Positions 1,421 to 61,659 of a DNA stretch of 64,000 bases are shown here, one piece after another. A program made the position numbers and the translations under genes. This DNA is from Planctomycetota bacterium (lineage in GTDB: Bacteria > Planctomycetota > B15-G4 > SIAN01), in the NCBI GenBank assembly GCA_031409275.1, contig JANNXA010000022.1:140058-204057 (forward strand), read 5' to 3'. Under the pieces are notes generated by a model that saw only the letters and a program-made list of their open reading frames with translations, had not been told where the DNA came from and did not search any database. Positions within the stretch are counted from its first letter, which is position 1, and the number at the start of each line of letters is the position of its first letter.

Positions 1421-1639
1421 GTGGACCTCACTGCCGGTTCGCTGCTCGCTTCGCTGTTCGCAAGTTCGATCGGCTTCAGCCTCTATCTCTACGGCAAGAA
1501 GCAGGCGCGGTCGCCTCAGCTCATCGTCGGCATCGTGCTGATGGTCTTCCCGTATTTCATCGACGGCACGCTCGAGATCGCCGCAATCGCCGCGGCGCTC
1601 GTCGGCGCGATGTGGCTGGCGATCTGCTACGGCTGGTAG
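1421..1639 (+). CDS. small two-TM hydrophobic protein (72 aa), function unknown
   Basis: GTG start 4 nt after the aminopeptidase stop. Two clear hydrophobic helices and a non-Arg-rich composition unlike the overlapping antisense ORFs. No recognisable family. Confidence 0.35.
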   Translation: MDLTAGSLLASLFASSIGFSLYLYGKKQARSPQLIVGIVLMVFPYFIDGTLEIAAIAAALVGAMWLAICYGW

Positions 1640-1673: not shown

Positions 1674-3458
1674 TCAACGGATCTCGAAGTCGGGGCAGCT
1701 CGTGCCACCGCGCCGGCTGGCGCCGGTCAGGACCGTTCCGGTCGGCCCGTCCGGGCGCGCGCTGTAGAGCTCGAACCGTCCGAGCTCCCGTTCATCGGCC
1801 GCGTAGAGCAGCAGCTCGGCGTCATGCCAGCACAGCCGGCAGACATCGCCGCCGCTTGGTGCGAGGCTTCCCGAGACGCGCTGCAGCAGGGAGCCGTCGC
1901 ACAGCGCGGCGAACGCCTCGAAGACGCCGTCGACGTTCTGGTCGGCCACCCACGCGAGACGCAGGCTGTCGGGCGACCATTGGATCGCGGGATCGATCGC
2001 CGTGTAGGCCGGATTCTCCGCATCGGACGCGAACAGCACATCCGCATGCAGGTCGTTGCGGCTGATCAGGAACAGGTTCGATCCGTCGGCGCGCGCGCAG
2101 AGCAGGTCGTAGGTCTGCAACGAGATCTCATTGGCGATGTAGGCCAGCCGGGACGAGTCGGGCGCCCAGCGAAACCTCTCGACGTTCTGCCCGAGCAGCG
2201 GCAGCTCGGTGTTGACGCGCTCGTTCGACCGCGATCTTGCGAGGGGATCGGCGACGTAGAGCTCGACGATGCCGCGTCGATCGAGGTCGCCGCGGAACGC
2301 GACCCGTGAGGAGTCGGGAGCCCACTCGAAGGCATCGGGCTCGAGGTAGATCACGCCGCCGTCGCGATCGAGCGGCCGCTTCGAGATCGGGGTCGCGTCG
2401 ACGTCAGGATCGGTCGAGCGCGGATCGATGCTCCACAACTCCACCAGGTCGGCCTTGATCCCGTCCGTCGCGTAGACGAGGCGACTGCCGTCGGGGGCCC
2501 ATGCAAACCGAAGGTCGTCGGGATCGAGGTTGGCCGGGTCGAAGCGCGCCGAAAGACGGCGGTCGTCGCTGCCATCCGCGGCGACGATGCGCAGCTCCGA
2601 ACCGGCCGCGGCGCCGCTCGCTTGCGCCACGAGGAACGCGAGATGCCCCGCGAGGTCGCCCGCCGGCGCCCATCCGAACGGCAAGTAAGGGCGCTCGAAT
2701 TCGCGGTCCATCGGCAGTCCGGGCGCCGAGGCGAGCGCGGGAGCGATGCGAAGCGCGTTGCTTCCGTCGGGAGCGACCACGTAGAGATGGAAGTGGCCCG
2801 TGGCAGGGTCCCGGGTCGCGCAAGCGAGATGGCTCGAGTCGGGGTTCCACTCGAATGCGGCCCGCGTCGCGGCGAAGTCTCGGCTGAGCGGGAACGCGAC
2901 CGGTCCGGCCGCGTCGGGCGAGACCTGGACGAGGTCGGTGCCGTTCTCGCGGACGGTGAAGAGCTGGGGCACTCCGGTCGTCACCGCATCGGCGACGTAG
3001 GCGATTCGCGACGAGTCGGGCGCCCAGACGAAGTCGCGGACTCGCTGTCCATCGGCGAGGTCTGGATGCACCTTGAAGGCGGGCGTCGTCGTCCGCAGGT
3101 CGACCACCCACAACTCGTCGATGTTGGTGAAGACGCGCGCAGCGACGAACGCGAGCCGGTTGCGATCGGGGGAGATGCCGATGCGCTTGACGGTCCCGCC
3201 GCCGAGTTGCGTCGCCGACAGAGAGATCTGGCTCGATCCGTCGAGGACGACCGCGAACGCTTCCTTCGTCTGGTTGAAGCGCAGGTCGCTGGCGACGACG
3301 ACATCGACGGCGAGCTTCACGGTCGGCGAGGAGCCGCCGCCTTGTCCCGGTTTCGACGCCGCGGTGATCGCGCCGGCGCCGCAGGCCGTGAGCATTCCGG
3401 CGGCCGCCGCGGCGAGCGCCGCGCGGCTTCTGGTCGAGGCGTTCATCAAGGTGTCCAT
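1674..3458 (-). CDS. PD40/TolB-like beta-propeller repeat lipoprotein
   Basis: At least six repeats of the F/W-x-W-A/S-P-D-S/G-S-R-L/I-A-Y type (WAPDSSRIAYVAD, WNPDSSHLACAT, WAPDGSRLVYATDG, WAPDSSRVAFRGD, WAPDSSRLAYIANE, WSPDSLRLAWVAD). Lipobox-like signal MLTAC. Start chosen at MDTLMNAS (ATG 3458); the ORF extends to 3548, but that part is Arg-rich. Confidence 0.75.
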   Translation of the reverse strand: MDTLMNASTRSRAALAAAAAGMLTACGAGAITAASKPGQGGGSSPTVKLAVDVVVASDLRFNQTKEAFAVVLDGSSQISLSATQLGGGTVKRIGISPDRNRLAFVAARVFTNIDELWVVDLRTTTPAFKVHPDLADGQRVRDFVWAPDSSRIAYVADAVTTGVPQLFTVRENGTDLVQVSPDAAGPVAFPLSRDFAATRAAFEWNPDSSHLACATRDPATGHFHLYVVAPDGSNALRIAPALASAPGLPMDREFERPYLPFGWAPAGDLAGHLAFLVAQASGAAAGSELRIVAADGSDDRRLSARFDPANLDPDDLRFAWAPDGSRLVYATDGIKADLVELWSIDPRSTDPDVDATPISKRPLDRDGGVIYLEPDAFEWAPDSSRVAFRGDLDRRGIVELYVADPLARSRSNERVNTELPLLGQNVERFRWAPDSSRLAYIANEISLQTYDLLCARADGSNLFLISRNDLHADVLFASDAENPAYTAIDPAIQWSPDSLRLAWVADQNVDGVFEAFAALCDGSLLQRVSGSLAPSGGDVCRLCWHDAELLLYAADERELGRFELYSARPDGPTGTVLTGASRRGGTSCPDFEIR

Positions 3459-3514
3459 CGAGCCAATCCAATGAGGGCGCATCTTCGCGCCCGACTGCGG
3501 TGCGAAACGAAGCG

Positions 3515-4291
3515 TCAGTCGCCGCCCGCTCCGGTGGGCGACTCCCACGCGCGGATCCGGGTTGCGACGCCATGCGCGGCGGTGGAGATGACCGCGTCGA
3601 GGATCAGTTCAGCGACCGCGTCAGGGTCGTCCTGGTCCATCGCGGAGACGAAGTGTGGCGGGATCAGGAGGCTCATCACGTACGGCAGCGGCGCTCCGCC
3701 GTTTCGATCGATGAAGTCGGACGTGATCGGCTCGTTGCCGACCTGGAACTTCCCGACGTTCCGATCGCTCCGCGCGACGCCTTCGAACAGCGCGATCTCG
3801 ATCTCGATCGGCGACGCCTGGTCGTAGTCATCGATGAAGAGCGAGGGGATCCCGACCAGCAACCACCCCACCGTGCCGGCGATCGCGCCACCCACCTTGC
3901 CGCTGCGCTCGGCCTCGCGCCGGATCACCTTCGCCACGATCGCGAGCTGCGGCGGAGGCTCCTGGTCCCAGGCGTAGTCGAGGTCGTTCGCGAAGGGCCG
4001 CGGCAGGAGCGCGACCGCCCCACGTCCGCATTCCTTCTCGATGGCCGCGTGAAGGCGAAGCGACAAGCGATCGTCGAGACACGGGGCGAGGATGGCCGCC
4101 GTCACGGCATCCTTCGTGGTCGGCGCAACCTCGCGCAGCTCCGACGCATCGACCCGGAACAGCGCGACGCGCGATCGGATCGCGGCCGGGTGGTCGGACT
4201 GCACCGCTTCGGCGCTCGACGACGATTGGCATGCCGCGAGAGTCGCGAGCAGCGCTACGAGAGCGAGCGGGCGCAACGAGAGGTTCGCCAT
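3515..4291 (-). CDS. lipoprotein of unknown function
   Basis: Start MANLSLRPLALVALLATLAAC (signal peptide plus lipobox Cys). ATG at 4291 lies 1 nt downstream of the upstream gene's stop codon. Acidic, non-Arg-rich composition. Confidence 0.6.
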   Translation of the reverse strand: MANLSLRPLALVALLATLAACQSSSSAEAVQSDHPAAIRSRVALFRVDASELREVAPTTKDAVTAAILAPCLDDRLSLRLHAAIEKECGRGAVALLPRPFANDLDYAWDQEPPPQLAIVAKVIRREAERSGKVGGAIAGTVGWLLVGIPSLFIDDYDQASPIEIEIALFEGVARSDRNVGKFQVGNEPITSDFIDRNGGAPLPYVMSLLIPPHFVSAMDQDDPDAVAELILDAVISTAAHGVATRIRAWESPTGAGGD

Positions 4292-4292
4292 G

Positions 4293-6983
4293 TCAGCGGC
4301 TCCTCGCGAGCCGGTAGATCGGACGGAAGCCACGCGACGCCCCCGGACCATCTTGGAAGAACTCCTGGTTCGCGATCTGGCAACGCGGCGCAGCGCAGTG
4401 GCTGCTGCCGCCGCAGAAGGGCCGGATCACCGTCGTCGCGTCGCTCGACCCCAAGAGTCGGCTCCACTCCTCGTCCTCGCGCAGGCACGCCTCCCAGACG
4501 TTGCCTTGGACGTCGAAGAGCCCCAGAGCGTTCGCGGCGCGCGTCCTCGCCGGCCGCACCTCGCCCTCGGAGTTGTCCTTGAACCATGCCGTTTCCGCGA
4601 GCGCGGCGGGCGTTGAAGCAGGGTCCTGCGGAGCGCCACCGAGCGCGAGGTAGCGCCACTCGGCGCTGTAGGGCAGCTCGAGCCCCATGTCGGCGCAGAA
4701 GCGGACGATGTCGCGTCCGCTGACCTGGACCACCGGCAGCGAACCGTCTCGCGGCGCCGAATCCTCGAGCGGGCGCCAACGCTGCCAGGCGTCGTTCGTG
4801 CATTCGGTCTCCGCGACCAGCAGGACGAAGGGCGAGCTGGTTTCGGGCGCTGTCGTCGCGAAGCGCGGGATCGTGTTCACCACCGCGAGCGGCAGCTCGA
4901 CTTCGACGAAGCGCAGGCCGCTCTTCCGGTGGATCCAGACGCGGCGATCGCTCGCCGTTCGCCCGGCCGGATCGAACGACGCTGCCAGCTCGGCAAGACG
5001 GCTCGCGCTCTCGTTCGCTGCCACGATCTCCGCCGTCGGCGTGGTGGCGGCGGGAGTGGCCACGTCGGGCGCGGCGCACTCGGGCGCCTTCGAATCGACG
5101 TCGACTTCGGGTGTCGTGGTCGCCGCCACGATGGGCTCGGTGACGGGTTCGGATGGCTCGGGAATCGGTGCGGGGTTCCTCGCTCCCGCATCCGCCACGA
5201 GCGGCGCCGCCGCCGCGACGGGCGCCTTCACCTCACGCGCGCCGAGAAGAGTTCCGTCGAGTCTCCGGAAGGTGACCGTCGCTCGGTCGACGCCGGATGG
5301 CAGATCGAGCTCCGCGACGAAGCGTCCGTTCGGCAGCACGGTGCACTGCGGAGGCACTCCGGTCGAAGAGTCGATCTGCAGGAGGTCGAGTCGTTGCGGC
5401 GAGAGCGTCGCTCGAATCGAAGCGCGACGATTCGTCGCTTCCAGCGGGCCGTTGTCCTCGAAGCTCAGTTCGACGGCGGCAGCCTCGGCAACGAAGTGGG
5501 TGATCCGGGCCGCGGTGGCATTCCAATCGTCCATCGCCGGCGAGGCGAAGACGTCCGTCTTGAACTCGCCGAGCGTCGCTTCCCACGCCGATCGCGAGGC
5601 GAGGAACTGGCGCGCACGGGCGTAACCGCTGGCGCCGGAGAGCGGCCAAGGCACGAGCGGCGCGTTGCGGATCAGTGGCTGGATCGCCGCGCGTCGTTGC
5701 GCTTCATTCCTTCGCGGGGCCTCGACCACGGGCGGCAGCTCGATGCGCCCCTCCAGCGACTTGGCCAGCGCCGGCGGTGGCGCGATCGGCGAGGCTTCGT
5801 CCGTGTGGCGCGGGCGATGAGTCGCACTCCAGGCGTTGAGCGCCACGATCGCGCCGATCACTCCGATCAGGAGCATCCAACTCTTGACGCGTGTCGTCGT
5901 CGGTGCCGGCAGCACGGCGCCCGGGCCGCTCAACGCTGCTGCGACCAGGGCGCGCTCCTCGACTCGCGCCGCGGCCACGTCGGGTGGCTGCGATGCCGAC
6001 GCGACGGCCGCCGTTTCGGGGACGACCGATTCGGGGGCGAGCATCGGCGTGTCGCGACGCTCGGCCGCTTCGGCCGGGATCGCGGTCGCTTCAAGAAGCG
6101 GCGGCTCGGCGGGCAGCTCCGCCGCGGGCAGCGTCGTCGAGGCGACCGGCGGCGGCTCGAGCGCAGGAGTCGGAAGGATCGCCTTCTGCATGGCGCCGTG
6201 CGGCTCGGCGACGCATGCGTTGCGGATCGCGTTCGCGAAGGCGCGGCAACTCGGATCGCGTCGCGCGAGATCAGGGTCGAACGCGCGCATGACGGCGGTC
6301 GCGACGGCTTCGGAAAGGTCAGGGCGCCATTCGCGGATCGGCCGCGCGGTCGACGCGCTCGCCCTCGGCGAATGGGGCAATTGGCCAGTGAGCGCCTGGT
6401 AGACGACGACGGCCAGTGCATGCCGATCGTCGACCAGGTTGGGTTCCGGCCAGGCGTCGATCGCAGTCGCCATGCCCACATCGGACAGGAAGGCGTTGCC
6501 TCCGGTGTCGAAGAGGATGTTGGCTGGATTCACGGCGCCATGGTGGACGCCGCGCGCATGGCAGAAGTCGAGTGCCGCCGCGATCTCCGTCAACCAGCCG
6601 ACGACGCTCATCGGCGCGGGGAGGCGGCGACGATCGTCGCCCGGCATCCGATCGGCGAGCGAGCCGCCGCTCAGGAAGGGCATCACGAAGAAGGGCGAAT
6701 CGCGGTGCTGGCCGACGTCGAGGATGCGGACGATGGCGCGGTGCTCGAGACGATTGACGTTTCGCACCTCGCGTTCGAATCGCTCGCGCGGTTCGGGATC
6801 GTCGACGAGTTCGCGATGCGGGAACTTCAGCGCGACGAGCGTACCGAGGCGGCGGTCCTCTGCCCGATAGACCGTCGACCGGTTGCCGCGCCCGAGCTCG
6901 CCGGTCACGACGTAACGGTCGTTGATCCACTCTCCGACGACTGCCGATGGAGGAACGCTAGGCACAATCCACCTCTTGCACAC
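4293..6983 (-). CDS. Ser/Thr protein kinase-like (predicted pseudokinase) - Pro/Ala-rich linker - single TM - C-terminal FGE-sulfatase (SUMF1-like) domain
   Basis: N-terminal Hanks kinase fold: GELGRGNRSTVY, VALKF lysine, ERFEREV. The catalytic loop reads HHGAVNPANILF instead of HRDLKPxN, and DVG replaces DFG. TM helix LLIGVIGAIVALNAW. The C-terminus carries GLFDVQGNVWEAC...RPFCGGSSHCAAPRC...RGFRPIY, matching the FGE-sulfatase domain. Confidence 0.8.
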   Translation of the reverse strand: MCKRWIVPSVPPSAVVGEWINDRYVVTGELGRGNRSTVYRAEDRRLGTLVALKFPHRELVDDPEPRERFEREVRNVNRLEHRAIVRILDVGQHRDSPFFVMPFLSGGSLADRMPGDDRRRLPAPMSVVGWLTEIAAALDFCHARGVHHGAVNPANILFDTGGNAFLSDVGMATAIDAWPEPNLVDDRHALAVVVYQALTGQLPHSPRASASTARPIREWRPDLSEAVATAVMRAFDPDLARRDPSCRAFANAIRNACVAEPHGAMQKAILPTPALEPPPVASTTLPAAELPAEPPLLEATAIPAEAAERRDTPMLAPESVVPETAAVASASQPPDVAAARVEERALVAAALSGPGAVLPAPTTTRVKSWMLLIGVIGAIVALNAWSATHRPRHTDEASPIAPPPALAKSLEGRIELPPVVEAPRRNEAQRRAAIQPLIRNAPLVPWPLSGASGYARARQFLASRSAWEATLGEFKTDVFASPAMDDWNATAARITHFVAEAAAVELSFEDNGPLEATNRRASIRATLSPQRLDLLQIDSSTGVPPQCTVLPNGRFVAELDLPSGVDRATVTFRRLDGTLLGAREVKAPVAAAAPLVADAGARNPAPIPEPSEPVTEPIVAATTTPEVDVDSKAPECAAPDVATPAATTPTAEIVAANESASRLAELAASFDPAGRTASDRRVWIHRKSGLRFVEVELPLAVVNTIPRFATTAPETSSPFVLLVAETECTNDAWQRWRPLEDSAPRDGSLPVVQVSGRDIVRFCADMGLELPYSAEWRYLALGGAPQDPASTPAALAETAWFKDNSEGEVRPARTRAANALGLFDVQGNVWEACLREDEEWSRLLGSSDATTVIRPFCGGSSHCAAPRCQIANQEFFQDGPGASRGFRPIYRLARSR

Positions 6984-7058
6984 GCCGCGCGGGGCGCCAG
7001 ATCGGCCAGACGCAGTTGAGCGACTGCGTGGGCTCTCGAGACACGCCTACTACGCGGC

Positions 7059-7622
7059 TCAGCTGCGATTCTTTTTCTCTTCGAGAAGGGCGCCACGTCC
7101 CGCGGCATCCCCCCTCGCGCCGGAGCTCTCCGGCGTGCCGTTGCTCTGCCGCTGCGAACCGGTCGTGGGATCGGCGCCGACGCGCAGCAACACCAATCGA
7201 GGCGTGCCGTCGACCACGATCTCGCGAGCTTCGACCATCTCGATCGCCAGGGGACCGAGCAGGTCGGCCGCTCCGTGCAGCGAGTCGGAGAAACGACGCG
7301 CGATCAGGACGATGCGCGGATCCGTTCCGAACGTGAGCCCCTTCTGCGGGAAGAGGCGATCGAGGAGGTGCCACATGCGCCGGACATCGGCGAGGACACA
7401 GACGCTTCGGCCAAGCAGCGCCTCGGCTCCGCCGCTGCCTTCGCCGAGGACCACGACGGGCCGCGCACTGCGGTCGACCATCAGCAGATCGAGCACGACG
7501 CCCGGTGTCAGCCGCAGAGCGACGTCGATCAGTTCGAGCCCGGCCTCGAGCAAGGTGGGGTTCTCGACCAGCGGCTGGAGCGACAGCGGCGCCTCGAGGT
7601 TCTGCAGTGCCGGGTTCATCAT
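7059..7622 (-). CDS. hypothetical cytoplasmic protein (possible Roadblock/LC7-like or regulatory domain)
   Basis: Same strand as and immediately upstream of the kinase-like gene. Start MMNPALQNLE. Balanced composition (L/V/E/D), unlike the overlapping Arg-rich frames. No confident family assignment. Confidence 0.4.
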   Translation of the reverse strand: MMNPALQNLEAPLSLQPLVENPTLLEAGLELIDVALRLTPGVVLDLLMVDRSARPVVVLGEGSGGAEALLGRSVCVLADVRRMWHLLDRLFPQKGLTFGTDPRIVLIARRFSDSLHGAADLLGPLAIEMVEAREIVVDGTPRLVLLRVGADPTTGSQRQSNGTPESSGARGDAAGRGALLEEKKNRS

Positions 7623-7763
7623 GGTGTGCGTCCTTGCGAGAGTCGGCCCGGGCGGGCCCACGCGGCGAGATCCTAGTCACTCGCCGGGAAATTTCTGCGT
7701 CTCCGCGTGTCCGAGGCGCAGGAGCACCCTGAAAAAGGTGCCGAGTCCCGGCGCGAACGTGCT

Positions 7764-8810
7764 TCAGCTGGCGGGGAGATCGCTTCGCCCGCGTCGCTCG
7801 CGCGCCATCGAATAGAGCGATTCAAGGGCGTCGAGTTCGCGCTGCGGGTCGTGGTGCGCGGCGATCCATGGCGGGCCGCGCGCGGCGACCGCGGCGACAG
7901 CGGGCTCGCGGCGCAGTGCCGCGATGCAACGCTGCGCGAATCCGGGGCGATCGGTGAAGAGCAGCGCTTGCTCGCCGTCGCGCAGCCACTCGCGGTTCCC
8001 TGGCACCGCGTGCGCGACGACGGGTCGGCAAAGCGCCAGCGCTTCCAGCAGCGCGTTGGAGAGCCCTTCGTAGTCGGAGCAATTGAGGACCGCGTCCGCC
8101 GCGGCGTAGACGCCGCCCATCGATTCGCCCGGAAGCGGACCGAGCCACCACGCCCACGGCGTGCAGGCCAATCTCGCGCGAACCTGTCGAGCGTAGTCGG
8201 CGTCGATCGCGGCGCCGACCAGCACCAGGCGGGCGCGCGGCTCGACCGCGACGACATCGGCAAACCAATCGAGCGCGCGCAGGTTGCCTTTCACCGGTCG
8301 AATGCCAGCGACCAGCAGCGCGAGACGCTCGTCGCCATGGAGCGAGAGCCGGCGGCGCAGCGCGAAGTCGCCGCTCGGTGCGACGACCCCCTTCGGCACG
8401 ACGCGCACGCGTCCACGCAGGCTCGGCCAGGTCGCCTCGACGGCGGCCTGTTGCTCTGGCAGCGCCACCATCGCCGCGTCCGCGCGCGCGACTTCGTCGG
8501 CGATGGTCGCTCGTCGCTCGATCGCCATCGGAAGTCCCGGCAGATCGCTGCCGGCGAAGGTGACCACCCGCGCCGGCCGGATCGCACCGACCCCGAAGTC
8601 GAGCGGCGTCGCGGCCCGGAAGGCGTGATAGACGTGGACGACGTCGAATCGGTCCGCTGCGCTTGCCGCTTCGGCCAGCGCCGCGCTGCCAGCATGGAAC
8701 CGGGTCACGTGGTGGCCGCGCCGCATCAGTCCGGTCGCGAGGCGACTCACGGTCTGCTCGTTTCCGGTCGCGAGCGCCGGTGGCCGCGGCTCGATCAACG
8801 CGATCCTCAC
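7764..8810 (-). CDS. glycosyltransferase family 4 (GT-B, RfaG-like)
   Basis: GTG start at 8810, 4-nt GTGA overlap with the upstream methyltransferase stop, and an upstream GGAGAG. N-terminal VRIALIEPRPPALATGNEQTVSRLATGLMRRGHHV and C-terminal EGLSNALLEALALCRPVVA are GT4 hallmarks. The ORF-track N-terminal 230 aa are Arg-rich antisense artefact. Confidence 0.75.
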   Translation of the reverse strand: MRIALIEPRPPALATGNEQTVSRLATGLMRRGHHVTRFHAGSAALAEAASAADRFDVVHVYHAFRAATPLDFGVGAIRPARVVTFAGSDLPGLPMAIERRATIADEVARADAAMVALPEQQAAVEATWPSLRGRVRVVPKGVVAPSGDFALRRRLSLHGDERLALLVAGIRPVKGNLRALDWFADVVAVEPRARLVLVGAAIDADYARQVRARLACTPWAWWLGPLPGESMGGVYAAADAVLNCSDYEGLSNALLEALALCRPVVAHAVPGNREWLRDGEQALLFTDRPGFAQRCIAALRREPAVAAVAARGPPWIAAHHDPQRELDALESLYSMARERRGRSDLPAS

Positions 8811-9649
8811 GCGGGGGGCTCTCCGCCTGGCAGGTCCGTTGGAAGATCGCGCCCCATCGCCTCGAGTGGCTCTTGCGTCGATTGCCGCGCCAGCGCGCGA
8901 CGGAATCCGACGAACAGGCCGCGTAGCAGGCTGCAATCGGCGTGTTCGCCCCCACCGCGGTCGAACAGGTCGATGAAGCGACGCACGATCCGACCATGCA
9001 GGCCACCGTCGGCGCCGGGCGCGAGGCCGAAACGCGTCAAGGTGTCGGCGCAATCTGCCCGGAGCGCCGAGCGGTCCTCGGCCGTCGCGCTGCGAGCGCG
9101 TGCTCGCGTCGGCAGCGGCGCAAGCGACGTGGCGCGCGCCACCTCCCAAAGTGCGATCGTCGCGGCGTGCGAGAGGTTCATCACCGGATCGGCACCTGGC
9201 ACCGGAATCGTCACCAGTTCGTGTGCCAGGTCGACCTCTTCCGTCGTGAGCCCTTTGTCCTCGCGGCCGAAGAGCAGCGCGGGAGCGGCATCGCGATCGG
9301 CGGCGATCTGCTGCGCCGCCGCGGCAAGGTCGCGGCGCGGTTGACGGAAGCGGCCGACGCGAGCGCTGAACGCGAAGACACGGCCGCACGCGACGAGCGC
9401 GCTCGCGACATCGTCGTGACAGGTCACCTGATCGAGCAGCGCCGCCCCGTGGCAGGCGCGCGCGCGCGCGTCGGCGTTCAGCAGCTTCTCGCGGCGCGCC
9501 GGCGACGCGACGACGAGCCGCAACGAGCGCGCCCCGAAGTTCCACATCGAACGGGCGATCGCGCCGACGTTGCCTGGCTCGTTGGGCTCGACGAGCACCA
9601 GCGTGACATGGTCGAGCGGCAGCGCTGCCGGCGGCTCCGCACGTTCCAT
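8807..9649 (-). CDS. SpoU/TrmH-family RNA 2'-O-methyltransferase (TrmJ-like)
   Basis: Start MERAEPP (ATG 9649). SPOUT motifs LVLVEPNEPGNVGAIARS, LFGREDKGLTTEEV and VTIPVPGADPVMNLSHAATIALWE. Confidence 0.75.
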   Translation of the reverse strand: MERAEPPAALPLDHVTLVLVEPNEPGNVGAIARSMWNFGARSLRLVVASPARREKLLNADARARACHGAALLDQVTCHDDVASALVACGRVFAFSARVGRFRQPRRDLAAAAQQIAADRDAAPALLFGREDKGLTTEEVDLAHELVTIPVPGADPVMNLSHAATIALWEVARATSLAPLPTRARARSATAEDRSALRADCADTLTRFGLAPGADGGLHGRIVRRFIDLFDRGGGEHADCSLLRGLFVGFRRALARQSTQEPLEAMGRDLPTDLPGGEPPA

Positions 9650-9705
9650 CTCGTCTCGCTCTCCTGTCTGGCTCGTTCCGGCCGCAGCAACGCGGAGCAC
9701 GTTAG

Positions 9706-10665
9706 TCAACGCGCCGCCGCGGCGAGCGTGGCGGCGAGGTCGACGTGTGCCTCGCGCGGCCCTTCGCCGTGCCAGCCGGCGGTGAGTTCGAGCCAGAGGA
9801 CGAGCCCCTGCTGAGTCTGAAATGGCGCGTAGCGCCGCGCGATGGCGCGATCGCCAGGCGGCTTGCGACCGGGCGCGCCGAAGAGCTTCGCGAAGCGGGC
9901 GCGACACCACGAATCGAGCGCGAGGTCGTCGTGACGACCCAGCAGTCGCAGGGCTTGGCCGGCTGCGTAGGGACCGAAACCGTCGAGCGCCAGGAGCCGG
10001 TCGCGCACGGTGGCGGTCGGCAGCGCTGCCTCCTCGAAGTGGACGGCGTCGAGTTCCCCGGTCGCGAAGCGCTCCGCGAGCTTGCGGGCGCTCCGCTCGC
10101 GATAGCCGACCCGCACGACCTCGCGCCAGAACGCTCCATTGGCGCTGGCGCAGACGGTGGCGGAAGGGAAGGCGGCGCGGCCCGACGGCGCCCGCGTCCC
10201 GAGCGCTTCGACGAGTCGCTCCACCATCAACCGCGTTGCCGACCAGGAGCAGTTCGTCGTGAACAGCAGCTTCAGCAGGTCCTCGAACAACGTCGCGCTG
10301 GCGAGCAGACGGCCGCCGCCGCGTCGCGCCACCCACGCGAGGTGCGGCTCCTTCGCGCAGAGCGACCAGAGCTCGGAGTAGTCGTGGTCGAGCCGCAGGA
10401 TGCGTCGTACCGCTCTCCTCAGCGCGGCGCGAACGGGCTTCGCGCCCGCAGCGGCACGCGCGGCGCTTCCGGTCACGGTGAGAAGCTCGCCGCGCGCCGT
10501 CACCGCGACGTCGTGCGCCGGTCCGCCGGCGTCCACCACCGTCTCGAAGCGATCGCGGGTGGCGTCGAAGCGATGCGGCGCCAGGTCGATCCAGCCGTGG
10601 CCGAAGAGGACGAGCGGGAGTTCGAACGGGGTTCTGGTCGTGAGCGCGAGGCGAGTCCTGCTCAA
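9706..10665 (-). CDS. HhH-GPD superfamily DNA glycosylase (AlkA / 3-methyladenine or 8-oxoG glycosylase-like)
   Basis: Helix-hairpin-helix Gly/Pro-rich loop LLALDGFGPYAAGQALRLLG. AlkA/OGG-like middle domain (LRLDHDYSELWSLCAKEPHLAWVARRGGGRLLASATLFEDLLKLLFTTNCSW). The start is uncertain; TTG 10665 gives a TTGA overlap with the BNR gene stop. Confidence 0.7.
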   Translation of the reverse strand: MSRTRLALTTRTPFELPLVLFGHGWIDLAPHRFDATRDRFETVVDAGGPAHDVAVTARGELLTVTGSAARAAAGAKPVRAALRRAVRRILRLDHDYSELWSLCAKEPHLAWVARRGGGRLLASATLFEDLLKLLFTTNCSWSATRLMVERLVEALGTRAPSGRAAFPSATVCASANGAFWREVVRVGYRERSARKLAERFATGELDAVHFEEAALPTATVRDRLLALDGFGPYAAGQALRLLGRHDDLALDSWCRARFAKLFGAPGRKPPGDRAIARRYAPFQTQQGLVLWLELTAGWHGEGPREAHVDLAATLAAAAR

Positions 10666-11753
10666 ACGATGGCCGCTTTCACGCAGGTGATCGGCGGCAG
10701 GTTGGCGGCGACGCACTCGAACTCCTCGCCGCCGTCGCGTCCGCGCCACAACTGTCCCGTCGTCGTGCCGAACCACAGCGACGCGTTCTTGCCGTCGTCG
10801 ACATCCAGCGAATCGCGCAGCACCGTGAACCACGCCTCCTTCTTGGGCAGACCGCGGCGCTTGGGCGACCAGGAGTCGCCGCCGTCGTCACTGCGCCAGA
10901 CGGTCGGCTGCGCGCCAGGACAGGTGCGTGTGGCGGTTTCGAGTGGCACGACCCAGATCGTGTCGGGCGCATGCGGATGGACGGCGATCGGGAAACCGAA
11001 GTCGCTTGGCAACCCCTTGGCGATGCTCTGCCAGCTGCGGCCGCCGTCGTCGCTGCGCAGCACGCTCAGGTCCTGGCGGTCCTCGGCGCCACCGTGATTC
11101 TGCAGGTAGAGACGCTGCGGCCGGCTCGGGTGGACGGCGATCTTGTGGACGCACTGGCCGAACTCCGGGTCGCGCTTGGGCTGGAAGTGCGCGTCGATGC
11201 CGCGATTGTTCGGCTCGAAGGTCTGGCCGCGATCGCGACTGCAGTAGTGGCCGCCCGCGGAGACGGCGACGTGCATCGAATCGGCGAGCGGCAGGATGGT
11301 GTGCAGGATCAAGCCGCCGGCACCCGGGTGCCACTCCTTCGCGTGCGGATGGTCGTTCAGCGGCGCGACCGATTCGAAGCGCTTGCCGCCGTCCTCGCTG
11401 TGGAAGAGCGCGGCCGGCTCCACTCCGCACCACAGGTCGCGCTTGCCGCGACCCGCTGCGAGCGACCAGATGTTCTTCATGGTGCGACCGTCGTCGGCGG
11501 CGAAGGCCGGGACGCCGCCCGTCGGCTTGAAGCGCTTTCCAAGGTCGGTCGAGAGCTGCAGCGTGGTTCCGAACCAGGGCGACGAGGGCGCGACGTAGAC
11601 GCGCGGCGCCGCACGCCGATCGATCAGCGCCGCGTTCACTCCCAGACCGGGGAAGAACGGTCCGCGCACCACCATTCGTTTGCCGCGCGCGGGCCCTTCG
11701 AGCATGAAGGTGCCTTTGCGCGTTCCAACGACCACCAGTGCTTTCTCGGCCAT
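10662..11753 (-). CDS. BNR/Asp-box repeat beta-propeller protein (sialidase/Ycf48/sortilin-like)
   Basis: Five S-x-D-x-G-x-T/S-W/F Asp-box motifs (SEDGGKRF, SRDRGQTF, SDDGGRSW, SDDGGDSW, GRDGGEEF). ATG 11753 preceded by GGAGGT. Confidence 0.75.
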   Translation of the reverse strand: MAEKALVVVGTRKGTFMLEGPARGKRMVVRGPFFPGLGVNAALIDRRAAPRVYVAPSSPWFGTTLQLSTDLGKRFKPTGGVPAFAADDGRTMKNIWSLAAGRGKRDLWCGVEPAALFHSEDGGKRFESVAPLNDHPHAKEWHPGAGGLILHTILPLADSMHVAVSAGGHYCSRDRGQTFEPNNRGIDAHFQPKRDPEFGQCVHKIAVHPSRPQRLYLQNHGGAEDRQDLSVLRSDDGGRSWQSIAKGLPSDFGFPIAVHPHAPDTIWVVPLETATRTCPGAQPTVWRSDDGGDSWSPKRRGLPKKEAWFTVLRDSLDVDDGKNASLWFGTTTGQLWRGRDGGEEFECVAANLPPITCVKAAIV

Positions 11754-11757
11754 GGCT

Positions 11758-12045
11758 TCAACCTCCGGAGACCGCTGGAAGGATGGTGACCCGATCGCCG
11801 GCACGCAACCGCGCCGCGGGGCTGGCGCGCGGCCGGACGAGTTCGTCGTTCAAGAAGAGCGACAGGTGCGGTCGCAACGCCCCCTGCTCGTCGCACACCA
11901 TCCGGTACGCCTCGGGCCAGCGCTGCGCGAACGCCGCGAGCAGAGCGGTCACGTCCGCGGCGACGAGCGCGACGCTGGTGGCACCGCCGCAAGCGGCGCG
12001 CACCGCGGCCGGCAGAAGGAGTTCGACTTCGAAGGGCGGCGCCAT
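11758..12045 (-). CDS. MoaD/ThiS-family ubiquitin-like beta-grasp protein ending in Gly-Gly
   Basis: 95 aa. C-terminus LRAGDRVTILPAVSGG and internal LSLFLNDELV match the MoaD/ThiS/CysO pattern. Sits 4 nt upstream of the BNR gene. Confidence 0.55.
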   Translation of the reverse strand: MAPPFEVELLLPAAVRAACGGATSVALVAADVTALLAAFAQRWPEAYRMVCDEQGALRPHLSLFLNDELVRPRASPAARLRAGDRVTILPAVSGG

Positions 12046-12067
12046 CGTCGACGAGGCTCCGGTGCGA

Positions 12068-13375
12068 TCAAGTGCCAGGCGGGATGCGTTCGGGCGGCAG
12101 GAGCAGCCGCCCCTCGCTGCGCGCGATCACCAGCGCGCCGACCAGATCGCCGGTGACGTTGGGAACAGTGCGCGCCATGTCGACCAGCCGATCGACTCCG
12201 AGCACCAGCGCCAGCAGCGACGGGTCGATGCCGACCTGCTGCAGCACGGTGACGATCAGCGGCAACGATCCACCTGGTACTCCCGCCGCGCCCACCGCCG
12301 TCAGCACCGACAGGAGCACGACGAGGAGCTGAGTGGAGAGCGGCAGGTCGAGCCCCGCGACCTGCGCGAGGAAGAGCACGACCACTCCTTCGAAGAGCGC
12401 GGTGCCGTTCATGTTGAGCGTCGCGCCGAGCGGGATCACGAAGCCGGCGATGTCGCGCGGAACGCCGAACTCGTGCTCGGCGGTGGCCAGTGTCGTGGGC
12501 AGCGTCGCGTTCGATGAGGAGGTGGAGAACGCCGTCGCCATCAATCCGCGCGCGCGCCGGAAGAGGACGCCGGGTGGCACCTTGGCGAAGAGCCAGCACA
12601 GCCCGCCCAGCACGACGAACTGCTGGATCGCGAGGCCGCCCAACGCCACTGCGAGGTAGGCGGCGAGCGAATGGAGGATCGAGGCGCCAAAGAGCGCCGA
12701 CTTCTCGAAGACGAGGCCGGCCACGCCAAACGGCGCCAGCTCCATCGCCCAGCCGATGATCTTGGTCGACGCGGCCGCGACGGCGTCGAGCACCTGCAGC
12801 AGCGGCCGCTTCTGCGCCTCGGGCAGGGTCCCGGCCGCGAGCCCGAAGAGGAGCGCGAAGAAGATCAGCCCGAGCATGTCGCCGTCGGCGGCCGCCTTGA
12901 CCGGATTCTTCGGCACGATCGCCAGCAGCATGTCGACCGAGAAGCCGCCGCTGCCCTGCGCCAGCGCGATCTTCTTCTCCGCCTCGGCGCGCGATGCCGC
13001 GACCAGTTCGTCGCGCATCGCCGGCGCCACCGTGTCGCCGGGCCGGAACAGGTCGACGAGGCCGATGCCAAGCATCGCCGCGAACGCCGTGGTCAGCAGG
13101 AACCAACAGATCGTCTTGAAACCGATGCGGCCGACCTTCGAGCCACCGCCGAGCCCCGCGACCCCGAGCGCCAGCGACGTGAAGACGATCGGCACGACGA
13201 TCATGAAGAGCAGGCGCATGAACAGCTCGCCGAACTTCGCGGCGACGTGCGTCGCGAACCAGCGCAGCCGCTCGTGGTCGTGGCCCCAGATCGCGTTGCA
13301 GGCGATTCCGGCGCCCACCCCGATGACGAGGCCGAGGAAGATCCGAGTCGCGCCGCCTTTTCGGGCGCCGCTCAC
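12068..13375 (-). CDS. dicarboxylate/amino acid:cation symporter (DAACS; GltP/GltT-like glutamate/aspartate transporter)
   Basis: Multi-TM protein with DAACS hallmarks (SSSNATLPTT, GVPGGSLPLIVTVLQQVGI, NVTGDLVGALVIARSEG). GTG 13375 overlaps the upstream stop (GTGA). Confidence 0.85.
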   Translation of the reverse strand: MSGARKGGATRIFLGLVIGVGAGIACNAIWGHDHERLRWFATHVAAKFGELFMRLLFMIVVPIVFTSLALGVAGLGGGSKVGRIGFKTICWFLLTTAFAAMLGIGLVDLFRPGDTVAPAMRDELVAASRAEAEKKIALAQGSGGFSVDMLLAIVPKNPVKAAADGDMLGLIFFALLFGLAAGTLPEAQKRPLLQVLDAVAAASTKIIGWAMELAPFGVAGLVFEKSALFGASILHSLAAYLAVALGGLAIQQFVVLGGLCWLFAKVPPGVLFRRARGLMATAFSTSSSNATLPTTLATAEHEFGVPRDIAGFVIPLGATLNMNGTALFEGVVVLFLAQVAGLDLPLSTQLLVVLLSVLTAVGAAGVPGGSLPLIVTVLQQVGIDPSLLALVLGVDRLVDMARTVPNVTGDLVGALVIARSEGRLLLPPERIPPGT

Positions 13376-14808
13376 CGTCCTGCTCCACGGTCGTCGTTCA
13401 GCTGCGGGAAGAGGCTCGGCTCCTCCATGACCCGCTCGACGGCGTCGATCTCCTTGGGCAGCGCCGCGGTCATCACGATGCATCCCTCTTCAGTGACCAC
13501 GACGTCATCTTCGATGCGCACGCCGATCGAGTGGAAGCGCGCCTCCACGTTCGGCGACCCCGGCGCGATGTAGCAGCCCGGCTCGATCGTGAGCACCATG
13601 CCCGCCGCAAGGCGCACCTCGCCGCGTCCATCCTCGGCGCGATAGGGGCAGTCGTCATGGACATCGAGACCGAGCCAGTGGCTGACGCCATGCGGCAGCA
13701 GGGCGAGCCCATGGTCGCGCTCCTTCACCACTCCGCTCTGCACGAGCGCATCGCCGAGCGCGCGGCGCGCGGCTTGATCGATCGCGCGCAGCGTGGCACC
13801 CGGCTTCACTGCCGCGATCGCGGCCTTCTGCGAGTCGAGCACCGCCTGGTAGACGAGGCGCTGCTCGCGGCTGAAGCGGCCATCCGAGGGCAGCGTGCGC
13901 GTCACGTCCGCCGTGTACATGCCGAACTCGGCGCCGACGTCGATGACGATCGTGGCGCGCGGCGGGACCCGCTCGCGGTTGCTGTCGTAGTGCAGGATGC
14001 ACGAGTTGGCGCCGCTGCCGACGATGCTCGAGTAGCCGAGCCGGCGCGAGCCGAGCAGCGTGTGCGTCGCCTCGATCACCGCCTGCAATTCGTACTCGTA
14101 GATCCCCGGCTCGGCATGGCGCATCGCGTTCAGTTGCGCCGCCGTCGTGATGTCGATGGCGCGTTGCAGGAGGGCGAGTTCGGCGGGCGACTTGATCAGC
14201 CGCAGCCGACCGATCGCCTGGCGCAGTTCGCTGCGATCGACGGAGAGGCCGGCCGGCACCGCGGCGTCGAGCAGCGCGGAATGCTTGGGATCGCCCGATT
14301 CGGCGCTGAAGATGCGCTTGGTCGTGGCGAGTTCGCTCTTGAGCGCCGCCGCGAGCGTGGCGTTCGAACGCGCCTCGTCCGCGAGCGGAGCGGCGCCCTC
14401 GACGCCGAGTCGCTTGCCGTCCCACATCTCCGAACCGGGATCGCGTGGCGGCACGAACAGGGTCGCGTGCGGCTGCCCTTCGCGGGTGGTGAGCAGCAAC
14501 GCGGCGCCCGGCTCGCCGAATCCGGTGAGGTACCAGAAGTCGCTCGCGGGCCGATACGGGTGATCGACGTCGTTGTTGCGCGCTTCGACCGGTGCGGTGA
14601 AGAGGACCACGACCGCGTCGTCGCCGAGTCGCTCGAGCAGGGCGGCGCGGCGAGCCGCGAATTGATCGGGCTCGAGCTCCTCGACTCGCGCGGCCCGGAT
14701 CGCCTCGCCGCGAACGGCGCTCGCCGCCGGGAACGGCGCCGGCGCGAGCGCCAGCCAACCGGTCACGCAGAGCTCGATCGGCGTGGACCACGTGCTCATG
14801 AAGTTCAT
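13372..14808 (-). CDS. Xaa-Pro aminopeptidase (M24B, PepP-like)
   Basis: Creatinase/prolidase N-domain followed by the M24 pita-bread domain (VIDVGAEFGMYTADVTRT, HGVSHWLGLDVHD, LTIEPGCYI, IGVRIEDDVVVTEEG). ATG 14808 has a perfect AGGAG 7 nt upstream and an ATGA overlap with the decarboxylase stop. Confidence 0.85.
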   Translation of the reverse strand: MNFMSTWSTPIELCVTGWLALAPAPFPAASAVRGEAIRAARVEELEPDQFAARRAALLERLGDDAVVVLFTAPVEARNNDVDHPYRPASDFWYLTGFGEPGAALLLTTREGQPHATLFVPPRDPGSEMWDGKRLGVEGAAPLADEARSNATLAAALKSELATTKRIFSAESGDPKHSALLDAAVPAGLSVDRSELRQAIGRLRLIKSPAELALLQRAIDITTAAQLNAMRHAEPGIYEYELQAVIEATHTLLGSRRLGYSSIVGSGANSCILHYDSNRERVPPRATIVIDVGAEFGMYTADVTRTLPSDGRFSREQRLVYQAVLDSQKAAIAAVKPGATLRAIDQAARRALGDALVQSGVVKERDHGLALLPHGVSHWLGLDVHDDCPYRAEDGRGEVRLAAGMVLTIEPGCYIAPGSPNVEARFHSIGVRIEDDVVVTEEGCIVMTAALPKEIDAVERVMEEPSLFPQLNDDRGAGR

Positions 14809-16259
14809 GAAGGAACTCCTGCCGTCGAGCGCAGCAGCGCGGCGCACTCCTCGCGCAACTGCTCGACCGCTTCGTCGACTCGCTCGACATGGGTCCGGAA
14901 CGAAAGCACGCAGAGGCGCAGCGCGAAACGGCCGCGCAGCAGCGTGCCCGACAGGAAGACGCGCTGCCGCGCATTGACTCGTCGAAGCAGTTCACGCGAG
15001 AGTTCGTCCCCGGCGGCACCGGCCCGCGCGACGCGGAATGCGAAGAGGGAAAGGTCGCACCCGCTCGCGAGCTCGAGGCCGGGGATGGTCGCGATCGCGG
15101 CGGCCGCGCGCTCCGCGAGTTCGAGCTTCTCCGTGAGCGCGGCACGGAACGCGGCGGCGCCGAACGTCTTGAGCGACAGCCAGACGCGCAGGCCGCGGAA
15201 GTCGCGCGACAGCTCCGGCGAGGCATCGGTGAAATCCTGCAGCGCGTCGCCCTGCGCGGTCGGCGGCAGGTAGGCGCTCGCTTGCGCAAAGGGGCGGCGC
15301 AGGTCGGCGCCATCGCGGATCAGCACGGCACCCGTTCCGTACGGCAGGAAGAGTCCCTTGTGGGGATCGATGGTCAGCGAGTCGGCCCGCTCGATGCCGA
15401 CGAGGCGCGCGCGACCGCGCTCGCACAGCTGGAAGCAGCCGCCGTACGCGCCGTCGACGTGGAACCAGAGCCGTTCGCGCGCGGCGAGTTCCGCCAACGC
15501 CGGCAGCGGATCGACGGCGCCGGTGTGGACCGTGCCCGCGCTCGCGATCACGATCGCCGGCAACAGGCCCGCCGCCCGATCGGAAGCGATGGCGCGCGCC
15601 ACGGTGTCGGGGTCGAGGCGACCGTGCTCGTCCGCCGGCAACTCGCGCAGGTTCGCGTGGCGAAAGCCGACGACGTGCGCCGCTTTGTGGATCGAGTGGT
15701 GGGTCTGATCGGAGGTGTAGATCGTGGCGCGCGCGAGCCCCTCTTCGCCGACCGACTTGTCGCGCGCCGCGGCCAGCGCCACGAGGTTCGCCATCGAGCC
15801 GCCCGAGGTGAAGACGGCGCGCGCCGCCGGCGGGAAGCGGAACTCGTCGAGCAGCCAACGCAACGTCTGCACTTCGAGCGCCACCAGCAGCGGCGCTGCG
15901 GCGGCGATTCCGACGAAGCGATTGGTGAGGCCGGCGACGAGGTCCGCGAGCGGCGCCGTCGGCAGCCCGCCGCCCGGAATGAACGCCAGGTAGCCGGGCC
16001 CCGCCGTCGTGAACGACTTCGGCACCCAGTCGCGGATCAGCCGCTCGAGCAGCGCGCGCGGGTCGCTCCCCGCTTCGGGAATCGGCTCGGCAATCTCCGC
16101 CAGCTCGGCGGCGGTGGGTGCCGGCCCGTGAGCCGGTTGCGTCGGCAGCTCGGCGACGTGGGTCAGCGCGAGGTCGACGGCCGCATGGAACCAAGCCGCG
16201 ACCAGCTCGTGCGGCGGTTCGAGCGGCGACAGGGAACTGGCGGCGCGCGCGGCAGTCAT
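14805..16259 (-). CDS. PLP-dependent group II amino-acid decarboxylase (aromatic-L-amino-acid/DABA/glutamate decarboxylase family)
   Basis: Start MTAARAASS (ATG 16259). Pyridoxal-binding motif SLTIDPHKGLFLPYGTGAVLIRD plus TSGGSMANLVALAAAR. The remainder of the 1452-aa ORF-track entry is Arg-rich artefact. Confidence 0.85.
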   Translation of the reverse strand: MTAARAASSLSPLEPPHELVAAWFHAAVDLALTHVAELPTQPAHGPAPTAAELAEIAEPIPEAGSDPRALLERLIRDWVPKSFTTAGPGYLAFIPGGGLPTAPLADLVAGLTNRFVGIAAAAPLLVALEVQTLRWLLDEFRFPPAARAVFTSGGSMANLVALAAARDKSVGEEGLARATIYTSDQTHHSIHKAAHVVGFRHANLRELPADEHGRLDPDTVARAIASDRAAGLLPAIVIASAGTVHTGAVDPLPALAELAARERLWFHVDGAYGGCFQLCERGRARLVGIERADSLTIDPHKGLFLPYGTGAVLIRDGADLRRPFAQASAYLPPTAQGDALQDFTDASPELSRDFRGLRVWLSLKTFGAAAFRAALTEKLELAERAAAAIATIPGLELASGCDLSLFAFRVARAGAAGDELSRELLRRVNARQRVFLSGTLLRGRFALRLCVLSFRTHVERVDEAVEQLREECAALLRSTAGVPS

Positions 16260-28566: not shown

Positions 28567-28678
28567 GACGGGCTCCTGCGGGTGGACGAGTCGCTCTTCC
28601 GGCAGGAGAGAGGCACGTTCCACGCCAGCGTTCCCGCGGAGGAGCGCGACGCCACCCGCACGCGCGGGCGGCGCGCCG

Positions 28679-48363: not shown

Positions 48364-48371
48364 TGCACCTG

Positions 48372-61634: not shown

Positions 61635-61659
61635 CGAGAGCGGTCGCAAGCGCGGCGGC

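Follow-up and report, generated by a model that had tools for sequence, protein, structure and literature searches.

Juxtaposed gene modules, rather than one super-cluster, probably make up a twelve-gene run of a planctomycete genome with a widespread ThiS-like/BNR propeller gene pair

Do twelve tightly packed genes on one strand of a planctomycete genome form a single functional unit? The question arises from a 64-kb window, by which we mean the whole stretch of DNA analysed (64,000 nucleotides of Planctomycetota bacterium, assembly GCA_031409275.1, contig JANNXA010000022.1, positions 140,058 to 204,057), and from the run of minus-strand genes at 1674-16259 within it. A first-pass annotation had read this run as one super-cluster of about 15 genes. 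Analysis of the G + C content at third codon positions (GC3) and the open reading frame (ORF) lists gave 12 genes spanning 1674-16259, which is also the number in the annotation's own gene list, and showed all of them to lie on the minus strand from 16259 to 1674, as had been stated. In our reading the run is quite probably a series of small, independent modules juxtaposed in a compact, strand-biased genome, and not one functional unit. Judged by conservation across genomes, its only evolutionarily fixed functional unit appears to be a bicistron of two minus-strand genes, one for a ThiS/MoaD-like beta-grasp protein (11758-12045) and one for a seven-bladed Asp-box (BNR) beta-propeller (10662-11753), here called ThiS and BNR.

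Far from the window's lineage, only these two genes of the run stay together. We fetched 80 BNR loci with 10-kb flanks from species-representative genomes with a 14-member alignment; these were the best-scoring of at least 597, a set that under-samples remote members of the BNR family. They belonged to the Planctomycetota, Acidobacteriota, Eisenbacteria, Gemmatimonadota, Verrucomicrobiota and Nitrospirota. A ThiS-like gene was found directly upstream of BNR in 77 of the 80 loci (L002-L081; tblastn with all 16 region proteins). In two of the three exceptions the contig ended within 160 nt of BNR, and the third had an ORF of 93 amino acids (aa) at the same place. None of the other ten cluster genes was detected by tblastn within 10 kb of BNR in these loci. 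The claim of one super-cluster does not survive this comparison: no cluster gene but ThiS accompanies BNR in the 80 genomes, and the last four genes of the run are present in none of the window's relatives. All-against-all clustering of the ORFs within 6 kb revealed no other neighbour family in more than six loci. A Pfam scan of 131 immediate neighbours peaked at four SDRs and contained no E1, JAMM, molybdenum cofactor (Moco) or sulfur genes. With neither a recurrent neighbour family nor a Pfam enrichment, gene context was set aside as a guide to the function of the pair. In 47 of 76 loci the gene downstream of BNR ran in the opposite direction; same-strand ones were ~100 nt away (median).

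The junction of the two genes is similar throughout. All 78 ThiS orthologs ended in (V/I)SGG-stop, and BNR started 1-4 nt after ThiS in 70 of 78 loci. In the window the gap is 4 nt, and the Gly-Gly codons, GGAGG in TCC GGA GGT TGA AGCC ATG, double as the Shine-Dalgarno sequence of BNR. ThiS and BNR are probably translationally coupled.

The ThiS protein (95 aa, ending in ...VSGG-stop) matched Pfam ThiS PF02597 with 37.5 bits (cut-off 22.5). Its closest PDB entries were the CysO-type carriers 3dwg_C (E = 3e-6) and 4n6e_B. Against the NCBIfam equivalog models for MoaD, ThiS and SAMP1 its scores stayed under the cut-offs, and on this basis it appears to belong to none of these three named subfamilies. 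No linked E1-like adenylase (ThiF/MoeB/MoeZ), JAMM protease or sulfur-metabolism gene was found in the 64-kb window, and none was recurrent in the 80 loci. Some known carrier systems use an unlinked housekeeping E1, so ThiS may still act as a carrier. The minus-strand gene at 27265-28755, some 11 kb away from the cluster, encodes a fusion of a metallo-beta-lactamase, a rhodanese and a YgaP-like transmembrane part, which resembles persulfide dioxygenase-type proteins in its architecture.

For the BNR protein (363 aa, six Asp-boxes readable) we obtained an AlphaFold model with a pLDDT of 86.8 and a pTM of 0.89, which matched seven-bladed Asp-box propellers. The closest structure was 3b7f (Foldseek TM 0.90, 33% identity), followed by GH74 enzymes, Ycf48 and sortilin. 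A signal peptide was not evident in the model, where the first strand begins at residue 4. The family is large (>6,400 matches). In 198 sequences, 122 of the 363 positions were at least 97% identical, including eight His; C201 was kept in 198/198 and C278 in 194/198. The six Asp-boxes and the DSSP string served to assign strands to blades, and residues were placed from propeller topology. Those placed were K13, D88/R90, E112, H135/H137, H151, E197/Q200/C201/H203, N219/H220, R276/C278, R313/D314 and T330-Q334. By this placement, the invariant polar residues would lie mostly in the D-to-A and B-to-C loops or at A-strand starts, that is, on the canonical "top" face around the central channel.

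BNR did not fit the sialidase or GH74 families. Its BNR_2 score was 26.6 bits, below the cut-off of 31.4, and sialidase chains matched with E = 0.005-0.6. Sialidases carry a catalytic Arg triad, Tyr and Glu, and GH74 has two propellers. The GH74 matches covered only ~95-150 residues of the two-propeller enzymes, and BNR is a single propeller. The database labels "exo-alpha-sialidase" and "PSII assembly factor-like" are probably wrong for this cytoplasmic propeller paired with a ubiquitin-like protein (Ubl). Literature on 3b7f, on COG4447 and on sulfur carriers with a BNR protein, propeller or Asp-box gave no account of a ThiS-BNR pair in what was a partial library, and this is not proof of novelty. 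The COG4447 literature was discarded as a clue: it deals with another BNR family, one that is linked to DUF1302, DUF1329 and RND genes.

Close relatives show how the rest of the run is held together. We found about six by exact-protein look-ups and a metagenome scan, all of them uncultured Planctomycetota from metagenomes with 56-90% protein identity, and gene order was verified by tblastn. The first eight run genes form a colinear block in this lineage, with variations: a pyridoxal phosphate (PLP)-dependent decarboxylase, the Xaa-Pro aminopeptidase-like PepP, a DAACS symporter, ThiS, BNR, an HhH-GPD-like gene (HhH), a SpoU-class methyltransferase (SpoU) and a GT4 glycosyltransferase (GT4). 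Locus L084 has all eight in this order, followed by unrelated genes. L087 also has all eight, preceded by CRCB and an opposite-strand (-) DPP-IV gene. In L082 the order is ZnuA-ABC-ABC3-FG-GAP-DUF4097-DPP-IV(-), then decarboxylase-PepP-ThiS-BNR-HhH, a 62-aa gene with ParE, and SpoU-GT4; DAACS is absent. L083 shows DAACS-ThiS-BNR-HhH, a 181-aa gene and SpoU-GT4, with an integrase island after them. L086 and L093, from one genome, together give DPP-IV(-), decarboxylase, an ASPIC-WD40-ASPIC insert, DAACS-ThiS-BNR-HhH, a 179-aa gene, SpoU-GT4, a 579-aa gene and M1(-), an aminopeptidase gene. L089 covers HhH-SpoU-GT4, with M1(-) ~550 nt further on.

Counted by junction, BNR-HhH was adjacent in 6/6 relatives and SpoU-GT4 in 7/7, the latter with a 4-nt overlap in L082, L083, L086 and L087 according to the called coordinates. 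Decarboxylase-PepP was kept in three of the four relatives with the junction visible, and the divergent DPP-IV gene in all three with the region visible (L082, L087, L093). In L093, PepP is replaced by three unrelated FG-GAP/ASPIC and WD40 genes with 0-4 nt junctions. Insertions between HhH and SpoU were present in three of the six relatives spanning ThiS-GT4 (L082, L083, L086), exactly at the 56-nt spacer of the window. After GT4, gene content differs in every genome. An M1 ortholog (72-74% identity) lies convergent just after GT4 in L089 and L086. Colinearity with L082 runs past the strand switch, through ZnuA-ABC-ABC3-FG-GAP-DUF4097-DPP-IV, indicating inherited synteny and not linkage specific to the cluster. 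The synteny comparison that the first-pass annotation had proposed thus gave a mixed outcome: SpoU-GT4 and decarboxylase-PepP are conserved sub-blocks, within a narrow lineage only, but DAACS is missing from L082 and PepP is replaced in L093.

Some of the genes lying in or after the block in single relatives were recognized; those of L082 and L083 belong to mobile or selfish elements. A ParE toxin gene and a small upstream gene occupy L082 12277-12740, between HhH and SpoU. Directly after GT4, L083 6756-11136 holds a phage-type integrase, DUF1580 and a DnaB/AAA_25 gene. In L087, a rhodanese and a Sulf_transp/TusA-type gene follow GT4 at 11119-13553, a few genes downstream of ThiS-BNR; these sulfur-trafficking genes were seen in that one genome only and may be a coincidence. 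The ASPIC-WD40-ASPIC insert of L093 (7756-12703) resembles an FG-GAP/ASPIC-TPR-FG-GAP/ASPIC block of the window at 56504-61649 (minus strand). Orthology of the two blocks (56.5-61.6 kb in the window) was rejected, the similarity being at paralog level (31-42% identity), and the likeness was not used.

Five modules would account for this pattern. The first (i) would be DPP-IV, divergent from the decarboxylase (with or without PepP), the second (ii) the DAACS symporter, the third (iii) ThiS and BNR, joined by HhH in this lineage only, and the fourth (iv) SpoU with GT4. The fifth (v) would be a genome-specific envelope and signalling tail of four genes (hyp200, pseudokinase-FGE, lipoprotein and PD40), inserted between GT4 and M1. 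Modules i-iv would be colinear within the narrow lineage by shared ancestry, with loss, replacement and insertion tolerated. The three largest spacers of the run coincide with the module boundaries deduced from synteny.

These spacers were read together with all other junctions. Gene models came from GC3/codon-position analysis, the ORF lists and start-codon context in a window of ~70% GC, and the models were reproduced by an independent gene caller on a metagenome contig of identical sequence (L001, Logan SRR20217191). The junctions quoted earlier (ATGA, GTGA and TTGA overlaps, the AGGAG, the 56-nt and 75-nt spacers) were correct on re-reading. Decarboxylase and PepP overlap by 4 nt (ATGA), and an AGGAG precedes the PepP ATG by 8 nt; PepP and DAACS overlap by GTGA; and 22 nt separate DAACS from ThiS. 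BNR overlaps HhH by 4 nt (TTGA), as SpoU does GT4 (GTGA). The spacer at 9650-9705 (56 nt, minus strand), between HhH and SpoU, is a module boundary, and a 75-nt spacer lies at 6984-7058. That these were the only larger spacers (~55 and ~75 nt) needs correction: the largest, at 7662-7763 (minus strand, at least 102 nt), had been overlooked. It separates GT4 from hyp200, marking the boundary of the conserved core and the genome-specific tail, and measures 141 nt if hyp200 starts at the ATG at 7622. Within the tail, the pseudokinase-FGE and lipoprotein genes are 1 nt apart, and the lipoprotein/PD40 junction measures anything from -34 to +56 nt according to which start codon is used.

Pfam, NCBIfam and PDB searches essentially upheld the domain calls of the first-pass annotation. 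The products do not fall into one pathway: their families cover peptide hydrolysis, aromatic-type decarboxylation, transport, a Ubl, a propeller, a glycosylase-like protein, an RNA methyltransferase, a glycosyltransferase, a pseudokinase and envelope proteins.

Downstream of BNR, HhH (9706-10665, minus strand) encodes a divergent HhH-GPD (Ogg1/AlkA-like) glycosylase-like protein of 319 aa, recognized from a profile of six orthologs. The single protein had no Pfam match at E ≤0.01 and reached only 29 bits (4.8e-7) against NCBIfam TIGR00588 ogg, whose cut-off is 398. The six-ortholog profile matched DNA glycosylases only (Ogg1/AlkA-class, E 2e-5 to 5e-4). The sequence GFGPYAAG...LALD251SW, unchanged among the six orthologs, can be aligned with the HhH-GPD motif of 4ejy and OGG1; a Tyr stands where bifunctional Ogg (lyase) enzymes have Lys. 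HhH follows BNR in the close lineage only, where it may have been additionally recruited to the ThiS-BNR cassette. SpoU (8807-9649, minus strand, 280 aa) is a SpoU-class (TrmJ/YjtD-like) RNA 2'-O-methyltransferase by Pfam SpoU_methylase (1.6e-22; 80.6 bits, cut-off 29.7); it scored 128.5 against TIGR00050 (cut-off 167) and 59.8 against NF011694 (cut-off 280). GT4 (7764-8810, minus strand, 348 aa), assigned by Pfam/NCBIfam, is the last gene of the lineage-conserved core. It aligned end to end with NF038229 ("GPMC system" GT4) at 240.5 bits, below the cut-off of 400, and a literature search found no paper on the GPMC system. Its ~12 close homologs are all of the same lineage, to which the subfamily is almost confined; a metagenome scan for this GT4 lineage gave four loci, two of them duplicates.

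Could ThiS, BNR, HhH, SpoU and GT4 be a lineage operon for nucleic-acid hypermodification, combining sulfur donation, base excision or exchange, 2'-O-methylation and glycosylation? ThiS-family proteins (TtuB, Urm1) are known sulfur donors for tRNA thiolation, and the ThiS-BNR-HhH-SpoU-GT4 order, insertions aside, is kept in 6/6 spanning relatives at 57-80% identity while the outer flanks vary, with 4-nt overlaps at BNR/HhH and SpoU/GT4. However, in 80/80 other genomes ThiS-BNR has no HhH, SpoU or GT4 with it. In 3/6 relatives HhH and SpoU are separated by unrelated genes (a ParE toxin module, an apparently secreted ~180-aa protein), and a GT4 at 34% identity has a class-I methyltransferase and a ROK kinase as neighbours, not SpoU. 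To our knowledge, no biochemical precedent joins these five families. We regard such an operon as unlikely. Under the modular reading, a DNA glycosylase gene and a methyltransferase-glycosyltransferase pair within the run are explained by the juxtaposition of independent modules, with an insertion hot-spot exactly at the 56-nt spacer. The coupling of SpoU and GT4, which had been called odd, is real in the lineage (7/7), but no functional link between the two was established.

Is the run unusually long or dense for this genome? The gene map of the window has 47 genes, and 76% of adjacent pairs are on the same strand. Other same-strand runs contain 8, 7, 5 and 4 genes. In Markov simulations, a run of at least 12 among 47 genes had a probability of 0.42 with window-wide strand persistence and of 0.18 with the persistence outside the cluster. 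Of the junctions, 8/11 in the run and 14/24 elsewhere in the window measured ≤25 nt (Fisher p = 0.48), and junction lengths did not differ significantly (Mann-Whitney p = 0.28). Overlaps of 4 nt were found throughout the window. Run length and tight junctions are thus no more than chance for this window. Because the rest of the window is alike, co-directionality and short gaps do not discriminate a single operon, and short overlaps are a genome-wide habit, not a signal of shared function. The first-pass annotation had itself named a compact high-GC genome with same-strand bias as the scenario that would count against a super-cluster; this is mostly what is seen, together with lineage-level synteny. 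A further example of the window-wide dense packing is a Bat/MoxR-type operon at 47374-54451 (plus strand), with a MoxR AAA+ ATPase, DUF58, an unassigned 302-aa gene, VWA and a BatD-like gene joined by 1-4 nt overlaps. The planctomycete placement of the window is backed by a DUF1501 and PSCyt2/PSD1 (DUF1549/DUF1553) pair at 40385-43530 (minus strand), a hallmark planctomycete pairing, and by the source names of homologs. For annotation, same-strand, overlap-packed runs in compact high-GC planctomycetes should not be taken as functional super-clusters unless synteny beyond the lineage supports them. Packing misleads in such genomes because inserted unrelated genes take the same 0-4 nt junctions, as in L093.

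These statistics also bear on a simpler explanation, in which linkage is selected nowhere and adjacency reflects recent ancestry plus random same-strand packing. That run length and junctions are indistinguishable from the rest of the window agrees with it, as does L082 synteny reaching beyond the run. It does not account for ThiS-BNR, which recurs with a 1-4 nt junction (70/78) and an invariant GG-stop in random contexts across at least six phyla and cannot be inertia, nor easily for SpoU-GT4 (7/7) and BNR-HhH (6/6), which persist despite indels next to them. We give this explanation little credence.

The four-gene tail belongs to this genome alone. It sits between GT4 and the ancestrally convergent M1, starting at the 102-nt spacer, and hyp200, the pseudokinase-FGE, the lipoprotein and PD40 were found at none of the relative loci. 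Its first gene, hyp200 (7059-7661, minus strand), encodes a 200-aa hypothetical protein with no Pfam/NCBIfam match. The second (4293-6983, minus strand) encodes an 896-aa protein with a Ser/Thr pseudokinase (Pkinase 1.5e-21, N-lobe), a transmembrane segment and an FGE-sulfatase-like domain (FGE-sulfatase 7.8e-14). In its translation HRD reads HHG, the catalytic Asp being gone, and DFG reads DVG. Its domains are joined by a long Pro/Ala-rich linker of low complexity, which includes a hydrophobic segment. The third gene (3515-4291, minus strand) encodes a 258-aa lipoprotein with the lipobox LAAC and no family match. The last of the run (1674-3548, minus strand) encodes a PD40 (WD40-like) propeller (Pfam PD40 1.7e-15) that starts at 3548, 3482 or 3458. 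Three ideas about the origin of the tail were dropped. As a relocated copy of the ~180-aa gene of L083/L086, hyp200 showed no similarity; the L083 181-aa and L086 179-aa genes themselves are 59% identical, with an N-terminal signal peptide apparent by eye. The 579-aa gene of L086 had no similarity to PD40. A compositionally foreign tail is unsupported, GC being uniform across the run at 0.68-0.72. Between M1 and PD40, beginning 3 nt past the M1 stop, we noted a 72-aa hydrophobic ORF (1421-1639, plus strand) that was not in the earlier gene list; its GC3 of 0.88 is a strong coding signal, and it has no family assignment.

At the other end of the run are the genes behind the proposed peptide theme. 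The first, at 14805-16259 (minus strand), encodes a group II PLP-dependent decarboxylase of 484 aa (Pfam Pyridoxal_deC 1.5e-54). In the PDB it comes closest to aromatic amino-acid decarboxylases (4obu 4e-64, followed by plant Trp and Tyr decarboxylases), and it falls under every NCBIfam equivalog cut-off. PepP (13372-14808, minus strand), with AMP_N and M24 domains, scored 310 bits against NF008131 (cut-off 465). DAACS (12068-13375, minus strand) is a 435-aa DAACS/SDF symporter of the Glu/Asp/dicarboxylate-like type (Pfam SDF 4.8e-111). As had been stated, a DPP-IV (S9B) dipeptidyl peptidase gene (16350-18605, plus strand; DPPIV_N 4.9e-80, Peptidase_S9 1e-48) is divergent from the run, across a 90-nt spacer from the decarboxylase, and an M1 aminopeptidase gene (2-1417, plus strand; Peptidase_M1 1.5e-26; 5' end outside the window) is convergent with it. 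The DPP-IV/decarboxylase/PepP neighbourhood is kept only within the lineage and is not obligatory, PepP being replaced in L093. Decarboxylase homologs at 54-55% identity, from another planctomycete and a Thermoanaerobaculia genome, had no peptidase or symporter neighbours.

A single super-operon for proline-peptide scavenging (DPP-IV, PepP, M1, symporter and decarboxylase, with the other genes co-regulated) is the least credible explanation and very improbable: DPP-IV, decarboxylase and PepP do adjoin in L082 and L087 (decarboxylase-PepP also in L084), decarboxylase and PepP overlap by 4 nt and the run is flanked by M1 and DPP-IV, but L093 swaps PepP for unrelated genes while DPP-IV and the decarboxylase remain, L082 lacks DAACS, M1 is ancestrally next to GT4 and not to the peptidase end, distant decarboxylase homologs stand apart from peptidases and symporters, the decarboxylase resembles enzymes for aromatic amino acids and not those for Glu, Asp or Pro products, of the 12 genes seven are unconnected with peptide catabolism, and only ThiS-BNR is conserved in the 80 other genomes. 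The coherent proline-peptide theme of the first-pass annotation is accordingly weak, an aromatic-type decarboxylase being a mismatch for a Glu/Asp-type symporter and PepP being replaceable.

We therefore return to juxtaposed modules, against which some observations weigh. L087 retains the block from DPP-IV to GT4 and L086/L093 retain it with substitutions, with rearranged flanks on both sides; the core could therefore be held by more than inertia, for example by co-transcription. The comparison rests on about six relatives, all metagenomic, with the background decay of synteny in the lineage uncalibrated genome-wide. Within the run we detected no sigma-70-like promoters and no convincing intrinsic terminators, in a scan whose consensus does not cover planctomycete promoter types and which is neutral on transcription units. 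Terminator-like sites numbered five, against 5.9 expected from shuffles. One, 12 nt past the GT4 stop (hairpin and T-run, 7752-7740), was not accepted as a terminator: it is only suggestive, the regional count equals the shuffle expectation, and RNA folding puts the T-run in the loop of an alternative hairpin. Spacer folds in the run had z-scores between -1 and -1.9. Structured RNAs or tRNAs that might mark internal boundaries or islands were absent, with no Rfam gathering-level match and no tRNA in the 64 kb.

What might the conserved pair do? A possible, still doubtful answer is that ThiS-BNR is an undescribed, ancient and self-contained two-protein system, in which an E1-activated Ubl delivers sulfur to, or is covalently handled by, a cytoplasmic propeller enzyme whose Cys/His site, invariant and specific to the subfamily, might be a metal or persulfide centre. 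In its specific form, the C-terminal glycine of ThiS would be adenylated by a housekeeping E1-like enzyme encoded elsewhere, as is reportedly the carrier of the BexX 2-thiosugar system, and would then be turned into a thiocarboxylate. The flexible ThiS tail would dock on the conserved propeller face, where Cys and His, possibly with a metal, would use the sulfur or form a covalent intermediate. This sequence of adenylation, thiocarboxylate formation and docking is offered tentatively. If true, ThiS-BNR would be the first case of a beta-propeller partner for a ThiS/MoaD protein, and thousands of genes would be mislabelled as "exo-alpha-sialidase / PSII assembly factor-like". A new sulfur-carrier-dependent enzyme of this kind would add a fold to thiocarboxylate (or prokaryotic Ubl) biochemistry and correct a widespread misannotation. 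As a by-product, the analysis delimits a two-gene cassette in hundreds of species of at least six phyla, with about one third of the propeller residues near-invariant and no published function found in the partial library.

How do the run and the pair compare with known systems? "Uber-operons", which Lathe, Snel and Bork reportedly described in 2000, are said to be conserved neighbourhoods of unrelated operons. Like these and like lineage synteny blocks, the run consists of co-directional, dense genes of mixed function whose order persists while modules are lost, replaced or inserted. Unlike uber-operons, it is conserved in one narrow planctomycete lineage, with 4/12 genes unique to this genome, and no functional or regulatory coherence of the run could be shown. 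As a "super-cluster", the run is a familiar and unremarkable arrangement.

The BNR protein is most like 3b7f (Reut_B4987 of Ralstonia eutropha JMP134, "putative glycosyl hydrolase with BNR repeats"), also a single seven-bladed Asp-box propeller of ~370 aa (profile E 4.8e-79), whose function is listed as "Not known" (PMC2716378). The two share H135, H151, H203, H220 and H259, but 3b7f lacks C201, C278, H137, H161 and H169, all (near-)invariant in the ThiS-paired family. As a pair, ThiS-BNR resembles CysO-CysM (3dwg), CysO-BexX (4n6e), ThiS-ThiG and MoaD-MoaE, where a small Gly-Gly beta-grasp protein likewise adjoins a much larger conserved partner. It differs from them in that the partner is a seven-bladed Asp-box propeller and not a PLP enzyme, a TIM barrel or a MoaE fold. 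By analogy, ThiS-BNR would be like a pair of sulfur carrier and partner enzyme, but one whose partner has a fold not known to serve in this way. The Vps10 domain of sortilin and Ycf48/HCF136 (D1 peptide-bound) are of the same propeller class. They share only 12-16% identity with the window BNR and are lumenal or extracellular binding proteins, not enzymes. Their entry descriptions show peptide tails bound on the propeller or inside it, and by analogy they may serve as structural precedent for the docking of a flexible ...VSGG tail.

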